From the IMG/VR virus record IMGVR_UViG_2684623127_000002: a DNA stretch of 64,000 nucleotides; one strand, written 5' to 3'. Source of the stretch: a virus. Lineage: Duplodnaviria > Heunggongvirae > Uroviricota > Caudoviricetes. How positions within the stretch are numbered: position 1 is the first letter of the stretch; each line of letters begins with the position of its first letter. The position numbers were made by a program. Shown here piece by piece: positions 33,001 through 36,000 of the stretch.

Positions 33001-36000
33001 GAGCCCTTTTCCGGCGCCTGGCAGCAGGGCGTGAAAGCCGATCCTGAAGCCGTCCTCTCCTTTCATGCGGTGTTTGCATGTATTTCGCTGATATCCCAGG
33101 ATATCGCCAAAATGCGGCTGCGTCTTATGCAGACGGATGCGCATGGGATACGCAGGGAAACGCGCCGGGGGGATATTGCCCGCCTCTGTCGTCGTCCCAA
33201 CGCCCAGCAGAACCGCATCCAGTTTTTTGAACTGTGGCTGAACGCCAAACTGCGTCATGGCAATACGGTGGTGCTGAAAATCCGTAATGCCCGGGGGCAG
33301 ATCAAAGAACTGCGTATTCTGGACTGGAGCCGGGTTGAACCTCTGGTGGCGGATGACGGCGAGGTGTTCTACCGCATCACGCCGGACCGGAACTGCGGGA
33401 TCACGGAGGCGGTGACGGTGCCTGCCCGGGAAGTGATCCACGACCGGTTTAACTGTTTTTTTCATCCGCTTATAGGATTGCCGCCGGTGTATGCCGCCGG
33501 GCTGGCGGCCACGCAGGGGCATCATATTCAGGAAAATTCGACGTCTTTTTTCAGAAATGGCGGCAGGCCGTCCGGGGTGATTGAGATCCCCGGCAGTATT
33601 ACGGAAGAAAATGCGAAAAAACTGAAGAGCAACTGGGACAGCGGGTATACAGGCGAAAATGCGGGGAAAACGGCCATTCTGAGCAACGGGGCAAAATACA
33701 ACCCCACGACGTTTTCACCGGTGGATGCGCAGACGGTGGAACAACTGAAGATGACCGCTGAAATTGTCTGTTCGGTGTTCCGTGTCCCGGCCTACAAGAT
33801 TGGCGTGGGACAACCGCCTTCCAGTGACAACGTGGAGGCGCTGGAGCAGCAGTATTATTCCCAGTGCCTGCAGACGCTGATTGAGTCCATTGAACTGTTA
33901 CTGGATGAGGCGCTGGAAACGGGGGAAAACGAGAGTACAGAATTTGATGTCACCACGCTGCTGAGAATGGACAGTGAGCGGCGCATGAAAACGCTGGGGG
34001 ATGCGGTGAAAAATACGCTTCTCACGCCCAATGAGGCCCGTAAACGGGAGAACCTGCCGCCCCTGGCCGGCGGTGATGCACTGTATCTTCAGCAGCAGAA
34101 CTACAGTCTGGAGGCGCTGTCCCGTCGTGATGCCCGTGAGGATCCGTTCGCGTCTGCCGGGAAAACAGTTTCATCACAGCTGCCTGACGGCGCATCTGAC
34201 GGTAATAAGGCAATCAGTGAAACAGAGCATGATGCGGTGAAAGCGATGTTCAGGGGGGATACTGAGAAAATGACGGAACGGGAACTGTCCATTATTCGTG
34301 CACTGGGAGAAGAATTTTCCACAGTGCTGGCGGATTTACAGCGCACATTTGAGGGGAAGATGGCCTCGCAGGCACAAGCGTTTGAAGAGAAACTGACTTC
34401 CCTGTCGGCGGTATTACAGAAGCATGTGACGGTGGATGAGGTGCGTCCGGTTCTGCAGGCGATGGTGGATGACGCTGTGGGGGCCATTCCGGTACCGCGT
34501 GATGGTCGTGATTATGATCCGGATGTACTGCAGCAGGCGGTGAATGATGCGGTCGCAAATATTCCGCAGCCGGCGGACGGTAAAAGTCTCACCCCGGATG
34601 ATGTGCGTCCGATGCTTGAACAGATGGTGAAGGAGGCTGTAAGCCATATCCCTGTTCCGCGTGATGGTCGTGACTACGATCCGGAAGTACTGCAGAAGGC
34701 GGTGAATGATGCGGTCGCAAATATTCCGCAGCCGGCGGACGGTAAAAGTCTCACCCCGGATGATGTGCATCCGATGCTTGAACAGATGGTGAAGGAGGCG
34801 GTAAGCCATATTCCTGTTCCGCGTGATGGTCGTGACTACGATCCGGATGTTCTGCAGAAGGCGGTGAATGATGCGGTCGCGAAAATACCGGTACCGGCAG
34901 ACGGTAAAAGTATCACTCCGGATGATGTGCATCCGATGCTTGAACAGATGGTGAAGGAGGCGGTAAGCCATATTCCTGTTCCGCGTGATGGTCGTGACTA
35001 CGATCCGGATGTTCTGCAGAAGGCGGTTCTGGAGGCGGTGAGTGCCCTGCCGGCTCCGCAGGACGGGCGTGATGCCACGGCACTGGAAATACTCCCCGCC
35101 ATTGACGATCAAAAATCCTTTCCCCGGGGCTCGTATGCCACACACCAGGGTGGACTCTGGCGGGCGTATGAAAAAACGTACGGGATGCGGGGATGGGAAT
35201 GCCTGGTTGACGGGGTGGCGGATATTGACGTCAGCATGACGGGTGAACGGTCGTTCTCTGTGGTGGTCCGGCAGAGCAGTGGCCAGCGTACGGAAAAAAC
35301 ATTTTCCCTGCCGGTGATGCTCTACCGTGGTGTGTTCAGAATCGGCGAAACTTACCACCCCGGCGATACGGTGACGTGGGGGGCTCGTTGTGGCACTGCA
35401 ACAGTATGACCGGTGATAAGCCCGGAGAAGCTCATTCATCAGGCTGGACTCTGGCTGCAAAACGTGGGCGGGATGCAGGAGGTGGAAAGTGACAGCATTA
35501 CTGACACTGGAAGAAATCAAGGCACATCTGCGTGTTGACCATGACGCGGATGATGAGATGCTGATGGACAAGGTTCGTCAGGCTACCGCCGTGCTGCTGG
35601 CCTACATCCAGGGCAGCCGGGATAAGGTGATTAGTGAGGACGGTGAGCTGATCCCTGGTGAGGCATTAACCCGGATGAAGGGGGCTGCCATGCGACTGAC
35701 CGGGATGCTGTACCGGAATCCGGATCTTGCGGAGCGGGAAGACCTCGTGCAGGGGGAACTGCCGTTTTCTGTTTCCGTGCTGATTTACGATTTGCGTTGT
35801 CCGACGGTGTTATGAGGAGGGGGAATGGCAATATCTGCAGGTCGTCTGACACAGATGATCAGTGTTCTGAACCCGGTGTTAACCCGTAATGCTGCCGGAG
35901 AAATGACGGAAGAATGGGTGTCATGCGGGAAAATTCATGCGGATATCCGGGGCAGGAGCAGCCGGGAGCGGATGCAGTCCGGTGCGGAAATGGCGCAGGC

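Follow-up and report, generated by a model that had tools for sequence, protein, structure and literature searches.

The window analysed here, which is the whole stretch of 64,000 nucleotides (nt) of the IMG/VR virus record IMGVR_UViG_2684623127_000002 (Caudoviricetes), is the Stx2c prophage of Escherichia coli O157:H7 NE122, with stx2c located at 20237-21477. Its head genes belong to a conserved HK97-like module, in which terminase, a protease::capsid fusion, the portal, a gene termed X here, and a connector follow one another. In the window the portal and X are read as a single open reading frame (ORF) of 833 amino acids (aa) on the plus strand at 32908-35409, and this ORF, for which the complete NE122 genome shows 100% identity, contains an array of tandem repeats. 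Comparison with related loci shows, at the level of sequence, that the array is the stalk of X (PHROG 1289), a distinct gene, and is not a domain of the portal. The new findings are best described as a derived in-frame portal-X fusion together with a second, truncating frameshift, and as the recognition of X as a widespread protein with a repeat stalk and a carbohydrate-binding-like tip.

Tandem Repeats Finder detects a period of 162 nt at 34486-35027 (3.3 copies, 94% matches, no indels, score 944) and a nested period of approximately 75 nt in the same array, and a repeat search of the window detects three copies of 282 nt, which start at 34434 and are spaced by exactly 162 nt. Upon translation the array is resolved into four in-frame units of 54 aa. 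Each unit consists of two half-repeats of approximately 27 aa with the form xPDDVxPxLxxMVxxAVxx-IPxPxDG(K/R)D, so that the array contains eight [IL]PxPxxG motifs. The units are 66-91% identical to one another in nucleotide sequence and 61-91% identical in amino acid sequence, with the highest similarity between the inner two, and the differences among them are synonymous and non-synonymous alike and keep the reading frame. An earlier note on this DNA had described about four in-frame copies of a 54-aa unit with a period of 162 bp, had regarded them as prone to recombination, and had raised the possibility that they collapse upon resequencing. The description of the units is borne out, with the quoted peptide present and the boundaries at most 3 nt away from those determined here. 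Of the 5,426 complete E. coli genomes, 1,246 have the same gene at 92-99% identity, as have 93 phage records; these are of long-tailed Stx1a, Stx2a and Stx2c phages, among them 2851, 1717, YYZ-2008 and BP-4795. The array is therefore not an artefact of assembly, because it recurs in complete genomes and in phage records. Short-read assemblies often break at the array, and most family proteins in databases are 'partial' at contig ends, as would be expected for an artefact, but the units preserve the frame while accumulating both kinds of substitution and the variants differ by whole multiples of 162 nt, and the probability that the repeats are artefactual is practically negligible.

The number of units varies among related prophages in steps of exactly 162 nt, in agreement with the proposed tendency to recombine and as the comparison of copy numbers suggested in the earlier note reveals. 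Protein variants with three, four and five units are observed directly, and the span lengths in the phage records correspond to one to four units. Among 99 complete X ORFs in IMG/VR, proteins of 245-246, 299, 353, 405/407, 461, 515 and 569 aa, which correspond to one to seven units, are encoded by 3, 7, 23, 42, 8, 1 and 1 copies respectively, and 14 of the 99 are truncated. The 149 representatives of the family have between 0 and 20 half-repeats per protein (median 6). The periodicity of 162 bp results from duplication of a unit of two half-repeats, and unequal recombination has varied the number of units from one to seven in the E. coli prophages.

The portal part of the ORF is a bona fide member of the HK97 family. 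PF04860 matches aa 54-382 (6e-81, 272.5 bits against a cutoff of 39.1) and TIGR01537 (portal_HK97) matches aa 45-388 (1.9e-104, 349.5 bits against a cutoff of 112), so that the curated cutoffs for membership are exceeded over the portal core, and the PDB portals 9lbn_H and 8cez_A are aligned with aa 43-420. Homology to portals stops at about aa 388-420. A PDB sequence search with the approximately 440 aa beyond the portal core yields no real match; the extension gave only matches to designed helical-repeat proteins, which are compositional, and matches to carbohydrate-binding modules (CBMs) below threshold. The region of aa 455-833 does not qualify as part of the family polypeptide, because neither the profiles nor the PDB portals extend past aa 420 and because it is a separate ORF in relatives. 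The repeats had previously been taken as a C-terminal extension of the portal. This is correct in so far as they are in frame with the portal in an ORF of 833 aa, as compared with 396-431 aa for solved HK97-type portals, but the extension is not an intrinsic domain of the portal, since the sequence from M455 onwards is a separate gene in all 40 loci examined outside E. coli.

The difference between the fused and the separate state is a single base. The window and phage 2851 carry CAGGGGGGAT (G6), whereas phages WGPS2, 1717 and Lys8385Vzw carry G5, the TGA of the portal and the overlapping ATG, and their alignment identifies G6 versus G5 as the only difference responsible for the two states. 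In these three phages two coding sequences (CDSs) are annotated, one for a portal of 454 aa and one for a protein starting with MTERELSII..., with ATG and TGA overlapping as ATGA. The two-gene layout with an overlap of 4 nt is also annotated in four records at a greater distance, which are those of Pseudomonas phage PAJU2 (ORF006/ORF007), Salmonella phage FSL SP-016, phage BP-4795 (ORF58/ORF59) and a Serratia prophage. When one genome per species was surveyed, 45 X loci were obtained, 40 of which have an adjacent portal; they derive from alpha-, beta- and gammaproteobacteria, including Pseudomonas, many Enterobacterales, Acidovorax, Delftia, Variovorax, Paraburkholderia, Rhizobium, Mesorhizobium and others. 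In none of the 40 loci of other species do portal and X share a reading frame. The junction between them, scored over 46 loci, is ATGA in 29 and an overlap ranging from 1 nt (TGATG type) to 16 nt in 13, with no short overlap assigned in 4. At the other end of X, 37 of 39 loci have a stop codon that overlaps the gp6-like connector start, 34 of them by 4 nt and the remaining 3 by 1 nt. Portal, X and connector form a translationally coupled chain, because start and stop codons overlap at both ends of X.

The split frame encodes a portal C-terminus of the form ...M-x-R-G-[ILFM]-[LI]-x-K-stop, which is conserved in other Enterobacterales, and the fused frame replaces it with ...MFRGDTEKMTERE. The conservation of this C-terminus, together with the two-gene layout elsewhere, indicates that the two-gene state is ancestral and that the ORF in the window is derived from it by a fusion caused by one additional G. 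At the junction, 95 IMG/VR contigs have G5 and 41 have G6. G6 occurs on two local haplotypes, both of which also exist in an otherwise exact G5 version, and G5 occurs on at least ten, which suggests that the junction has either switched at least twice or been transferred by recombination. The exact fused protein of 859 aa of phage 2851 is found in 806 contigs, so that the fused allele is abundant, though rarer than the split one. Phage phi330 (PV189401, 5150-6620) has the G6 junction with an extra CT approximately 70 nt upstream, by which the portal is terminated early (444 aa) and X, with five units, is separated from it again; the 3' part of this X contains three further indels of 1 nt. Either a second-site mutation has undone the fusion in phi330, or these differences are errors in a genome assembled by hand from Sanger reads.

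Coordinates of the features of the portal-X locus in the window
Feature	Position	Strand	Evidence
HK97-family portal proper, aa 1-454 of the fused ORF	32908..34269	+	PF04860, TIGR01537, PDB portals; 454-aa CDS in split-allele relatives
G6 homopolymer, one-base insertion (G5 to G6) joining portal and X in frame	34253..34258	+	alignment with WGPS2, 1717, Lys8385Vzw
Ancestral ATG start codon of X (M455, MTERELSII...), inside the ATGA stop/start overlap of split alleles	34270..34272	+	
N-terminal amphipathic helix of X, approximately 50 aa, candidate anchor or oligomerisation segment	34270..34431	+	
Four tandem units of 162 nt / 54 aa, equal to eight half-repeats of approximately 27 aa (helix + PxPxDG(K/R)D)	34432..35079	+	repeat searches, ORF translation, AF2
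54-aa units, in frame	34432-34593, 34594-34755, 34756-34917, 34918-35079	+	ORF translation
C-terminal beta-rich domain of X, truncated, without the last two of the three strands of the CBM5/12-like tip	35080..35409	+	
G6 homopolymer in place of G7 in intact relatives, frameshift	35378..35383	+	alignment with phage 2851; RefSeq 'frameshifted'
3' remnant of X, out of frame; in intact form its stop (35490-35492) and the connector GTG at 35489 would overlap	35410..35492	+	
gp6-like head-tail connector, normally coupled to X	35489..35815	+	PF05135 9.8e-8; synteny in most related loci examined
Prohead protease (Peptidase_S78) :: HK97-type major capsid fusion, 645 aa, coiled-coil linker	30759..32696	+	PF04586 and PF05065

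Three other accounts of the junction were considered. The protein of 833 or 859 aa might be the true native portal, with a C-terminal domain evolved like the barrel of P22 and with the two-ORF versions representing decay. PHROG 2271 is a full-length 'portal' profile of 859 positions, many database records call the protein a portal, and for several Sakai prophages Asadulghani et al. (2009, PMC2669165) scored a defective portal function. This account is, however, already contradicted by the present evidence and has very little probability left, because the two ORFs with a precise overlap of stop and start are present in 40 of 40 loci of other species and in at least six isolated phages, the split frame retains the conserved C-terminal residues of the portal, neither portal profiles nor solved portals go beyond about aa 420, and the G5 allele is the commoner and the more diverse in haplotype. 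A P22-type barrel would require an unbroken C-terminal helix of more than 100 aa that belongs to the portal gene in relatives, and neither the AF2 models nor the gene layout of relatives show one. Alternatively, the G-run might be a site of programmed recoding or phase variation, at which both alleles yield normal portal as well as portal-X fusion, through -1 slippage in G5 alleles, at the GGG that precedes the rare AUA codon, and through +1 slippage in G6 alleles. The ancestral portal frame ends with the codons AGG GGG ATA CTG CGA AAA TGA, among which AGG, ATA and CGA are rare in E. coli. A GGG in the P site could re-pair in the shifted frame in both alleles, the split allele continues with rare codons (AGG, AUA, CGA), genes for tRNA-Ile, tRNA-Arg and tRNA-Arg are carried by the prophage beside stx, and G5/G6 switching has affected at least two haplotypes. 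These points are outweighed by the limited conservation of the G-run, which is confined to the E. coli clade and is replaced by AGAGGA at the same Arg-Gly codons in most other Enterobacterales; besides, the site has no canonical X XXY YYZ heptamer, a run of five or six G is short for efficient slippage, and no stimulatory structure was found, although none was sought. Recoding is hence hardly probable, and a conserved programmed frameshift was rejected outright, because the slippery run is AGAGGA in most other Enterobacterales and is different again in alpha- and betaproteobacteria. It is slightly less improbable, but still a long way from likely, that the G5/G6 run serves as a reversible genetic switch between free, portal-coupled X and portal-tethered, encapsidated X, possibly aided by low-level ribosomal slippage at GGG next to the rare AGG and AUA codons. 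If this were so, populations of Stx phages would hold two heritable types of virion, which differ in adsorption or DNA delivery, and X would represent a new class of portal-vertex accessory protein that is widespread in HK97-like phages of Proteobacteria. The genes for tRNA-Ile, tRNA-Arg and tRNA-Arg lie just upstream of those for the stx2c A and B subunits (19901-21477). A link between these tRNAs and the rare codons at the end of the portal is speculation.

The copy of X in the window is altered at a second homopolymer. Loss of one G from a run of seven changes ...GDTVTWGGSLWHC... into ...GDTVTWGARCGTATV-stop, with the stop codon at 35407-35409, and the last 36 aa of X are replaced by ARCGTATV. 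RefSeq accordingly describes 32908-35492 as a 'frameshifted' portal pseudogene. The identical product of 833 aa is deposited under four accessions, and the same truncated tail is found in 5 of the 99 IMG/VR copies, on G5 and G6 backgrounds both. The loss is therefore a real and probably recurrent homopolymer mutation and not a single sequencing error. The start codon of the connector (GTG) is uncoupled from X by the truncation. Joined to the portal, short of two of the three strands of the CBM-like tip and no longer coupled to the connector, this copy of X is probably non-functional. The NE122 Stx2c prophage is itself defective. Two copies of IS1203 (IS3 family) are present at 1221-2434 and 9202-10415, and the regulatory region is damaged, as the second copy splits cII into fragments at 9035-9184 and 10465-10644. 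The annotation of minor tail protein L is split into two incomplete pieces (42047-42773 and 42790-44385), and an Arc/Arc/Ant (antirepressor) moron lies between the tail genes L and K.

X belongs to a large family, for which 2,339 cluster representatives at 50% identity are obtained at E<=1e-3 and 1,431 at E<=1e-10. Among the matches listed (the best 150 of 2,339), most are stand-alone proteins of 250-600 aa. Of ten diverse members from outside E. coli that were scanned, all match PHROG 1289 and only one, P0238 (1237 aa), has a portal domain; likewise, five of the six longest members scanned lack a portal domain, the sixth being P0238. The repeat region itself matches phrog_1289 with an E value of 1.2e-163. 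The window copy has the features of the family, namely the N-terminal helix, the PxPxDG repeats, the C-terminal domain and the position between portal and connector, with the C-terminal domain truncated. Other examples of PHROG 1289 are BP-4795 ORF59, ACI43155 of phage 1717, PAJU2 ORF007 and FSL SP-016 SP016_00155, and phrog_8767 and phrog_16748 are fragment families of it. Stand-alone X is named 'portal protein' across NCBI and PHROGs, and single cluster members (P0283 and P0294) are named 'ParA' or 'gp6-like connector'. All these names are errors of annotation transfer from the fusion and from fragments at contig ends, and the 'portal protein' label of PHROG 1289 has evidently been transferred from fused alleles. 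P0238 is a second portal-X fusion, approximately 38% identical to X of the window, in which approximately 450 aa of additional repeats separate the portal from the C-terminal domain; an independent fusion and a sequencing error that shifted the frame are both conceivable.

Structure prediction, which had been suggested for the extension, gives the same three-part layout in the AF2 models of a Serratia homologue and of the E. coli protein of 407 aa, in which helices are predicted to be arranged like beads on a string between a long N-terminal helix and a confidently modelled beta domain. The N-terminal helix has approximately 50 residues (pLDDT 92-96). The stalk is modelled as eight helices of alternately 17 and 13 residues, connected by PxPxDG linkers of 12 residues, with pLDDT of 55-80 and no confident packing. 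The C-terminal domain of approximately 130 aa has ten beta strands (pLDDT 95-98) and ends in a CBM5/12-like module, the predicted tip having the three-stranded fold of CBM5/12 chitin-binding domains. Against the threshold of 26.2 bits for PF02839 (CBM_5_12), the intact E. coli protein scores 23.7 bits, homologues score 22.6-25.7 and P0124 scores 29.8. The stalk is acidic, with a pI of 4.6 and a net charge of -17 over the repeats, and the C-terminal domain is nearly neutral. The Foldseek neighbours among predicted viral structures are collagen-repeat, ChiC_BD and pectinesterase/ConA-like tail-spike proteins of phages (E 1e-8 to 1e-5), the collagen-repeat proteins being aligned with the C-terminal domain only, and the best matches in PDB, which are weak, are the tail fibres of Agrobacterium phage 7-7-1, the receptor-binding complex of phage Milano and the CBMs of chitin deacetylases. 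No Pfam match to the collagen-like fibre family PF01391 is found in the scanned X proteins, and one to three G-X-Y triplets occur in linkers or tails of some homologues. Pfam matches of the repeats to TetR_C_35, DUF4244, FliG_N and others were rejected as low-scoring helical-repeat artefacts, and the PF28083 assignment precomputed for many homologues was rejected as a faint match to QatB without meaning.

The best overall explanation is that the gene for X has been fused onto the portal and that X serves at the portal vertex as an accessory fibre or tether of low copy number, which is held here with slightly better than even confidence. The specific proposal of an accessory fibre or tether at the portal or neck with a glycan-binding tip, for which function and location are inferred, is put a little below even. 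The N-terminal helix would anchor or oligomerise X at the portal or neck, the helix-linker repeats would serve as a spacer of adjustable length, and a glycan of the cell surface or of the surroundings would be the target of the C-terminal beta domain and its CBM5/12-like tip. An anchor helix, a spacer that can shrink to nothing and a conserved end domain with a tip like that of fibres and spikes also make up the plan of accessory fibres such as T4 fibritin, the phi29 head fibres and the neck fibres of cyanophage A-1(L). Fusion would tether X to the portal crown in the capsid interior, with loss or alteration of any external role. The glycan-binding and fibre-tip parts of the proposal are suggested by the Pfam matches to CBM_5_12 and by the fibre and tail-spike neighbours in Foldseek. 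Chained coupling from the portal through X to the connector implies low, portal-like expression, and thus a component of the unique vertex rather than a decoration of the whole capsid. The earlier suggestion of a decoration or scaffold-like domain is disfavoured accordingly, since a decoration protein made in high copy would not be expected to be coupled in translation to the portal; that the major capsid protein already has its own protease and linker was also weighed against such a role. X is apparently dispensable for plaque formation, because 14 of 99 copies are truncated and the gene is disrupted in the plaque-forming phage phi330, whose deposited genome was, as mentioned, assembled by hand.

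Several observations weigh against a fibre or tether outside the capsid. The GenBank record of PAJU2 marks ORF003, ORF010 and ORF015 as structural, and ORF007, which is X, as 'hypothetical protein'. The CBM match of E. coli X itself is below the Pfam threshold, and the repeat region is modelled with low confidence. The fused allele is very common (806 contigs for the protein of 859 aa) and is also carried by phage 2851, which was reportedly shown to be infectious by Strauch and colleagues in 2008. The C-terminus of the portal faces the interior of the capsid, and fusion at this terminus would be easier to tolerate if X acted inside the capsid. This favours the alternative that X is an encapsidated, portal-bound minor head protein, analogous to SPP1 gp7 and Mu gpF or to ejection or pilot proteins, which docks on the portal crown by its N-terminal helix and exits through the tail with the DNA, the fusion merely making the normal complex covalent and the CBM-like domain binding peptidoglycan or envelope glycans in the periplasm. 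The gene lies directly downstream of the portal and is translationally coupled to it, and SPP1 gene 7 and Mu F have the same position, directly after the portal. Fusion to the C-terminus of the portal is also widespread, with a second, possibly independent case in P0238, and helices arranged like beads on a string with a small terminal domain, as modelled, could thread the tail channel. However, X resembles neither Phage_Mu_F nor any ejection protein in Pfam, and for PF04233 (Phage_Mu_F / SPP1 gp7) no match is obtained in Pfam scans up to E=10. Its stalk is strongly acidic, its nearest structural neighbours are the tips of external fibres and tail spikes and CBMs, and the fused state is derived and the rarer one, being found in none of the 40 loci of other species and in one of ten representatives scanned from outside E. 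coli (P0238). An internal X is thus rather unlikely, though it is the foremost alternative. A role as a non-virion assembly factor, that is a portal chaperone or scaffold-like nucleator that brings the portal to protease::capsid in procapsid initiation and is then removed, is clearly less likely than that. It would agree with the strict association of X with one head module, consisting of the protease::major capsid protein (MCP) fusion and this type of portal, with the coupling of its expression to the portal, and with the missing structural label of PAJU2 ORF007 in GenBank. Frequent truncation in prophages and the apparently disrupted copy in plaque-forming phi330 disagree with an essential role, a CBM-like tip and a stalk of widely varying length are unexpected in a chaperone, and the capsid protein possesses its own protease and coiled-coil linker.

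The order protease::MCP, portal and X is kept in every locus whose upstream flank reaches the capsid gene. The protease::MCP fusion accompanies X in most related loci, including that of PAJU2; the capsid match is distributed over two ORFs in, for example, L010, L022, L024, L038 and L050, and such loci are few and belong to beta- and alphaproteobacteria. A small ORF of 73 aa at 32741-32962 follows the capsid gene and runs 55 nt into the portal gene, and similar small ORFs are present at the same position in PAJU2, FSL SP-016 and BP-4795. Downstream, the major tail subunit (37018-37734) apparently has a C-terminal Ig-like domain, as judged by eye (…PPYKHAWKKDGQPV…GAYTCEVTD…), and upstream alternative starts are annotated for it in 1717 and BP-4795, giving versions of 846 nt.

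The literature search uncovered no description of a portal C-terminal repeat, a portal-X fusion or the X protein, and no virion proteomics of phages carrying X; for phi330 virions, LC-MS/MS is reported in the phi330 paper. A different organisation of the head genes has been noted in the Sakai prophages Sp6, Sp9, Sp10 and Sp12, and the portal was scored as defective in Sp3, Sp6, Sp9 and Sp12, yet Sp6 is transferable and DNA of Sp9 is packaged (Asadulghani et al. 2009, PMC2669165). If 'defective' meant the two-ORF state, the present results suggest that those portals are intact. Two-ORF versions, which were perhaps scored as defective portals, are in fact the ancestral form. Thousands of E. coli entries for a 'phage portal protein' of approximately 859 aa are to be corrected to portal-X fusions, and stand-alone X is mislabelled as portal. 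With more than 2,300 clusters at 50% identity across Proteobacteria, X is a target for cryo-EM and genetics of the portal vertex of long-tailed Stx phages. The two homopolymer frameshifts and the variation from one to seven units can serve as markers for typing Stx prophages, and are a warning for short-read assemblies. The understanding of portal mechanics is not changed by these findings.

Compared with known systems, residues 1 to approximately 420 of the ORF constitute an HK97-family portal like HK97 gp3 (8cez) and 9lbn gp1, in the usual neighbourhood of head genes; solved members end at the crown, whereas aa 455-833 of the window are a fused neighbouring gene outside the family. The likeness to the P22 portal barrel is limited to a helical segment after the portal crown, and to the fused allele. 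In P22 the portal gene itself encodes the barrel, an unbroken helix of approximately 120 aa that is integral to the protein, whereas X is a separate gene with interrupted helices of 13-17 residues and a beta domain. X of the window shares the helix, the PxPxDG repeats, the C-terminal domain and the locus with PHROG 1289, but is fused to the portal and truncated at its C-terminus. From the CBM5/12 modules (PF02839; 2d49, Serratia ChiB) X differs by its borderline Pfam score and by truncation of the module in the window. X resembles SPP1 gp7 and Mu gpF in its position directly after the portal, its expected low copy number and its possible fusion to the portal, but differs from them in lacking homology to Phage_Mu_F and in being acidic and rich in repeats, with a carbohydrate-binding-like domain. 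T4 fibritin has no sequence or fold match with X, which has a CBM5/12-like tip instead of a foldon. X is similar to T4 fibritin (wac) and other neck or head fibres, such as phi29 gp8.5 and the neck fibres of cyanophage A-1(L) (PMC10966104), in its segmented helical stalk of variable length, its candidate N-terminal anchor, its small C-terminal globular domain, its apparent dispensability and its neighbourhood of neck genes.

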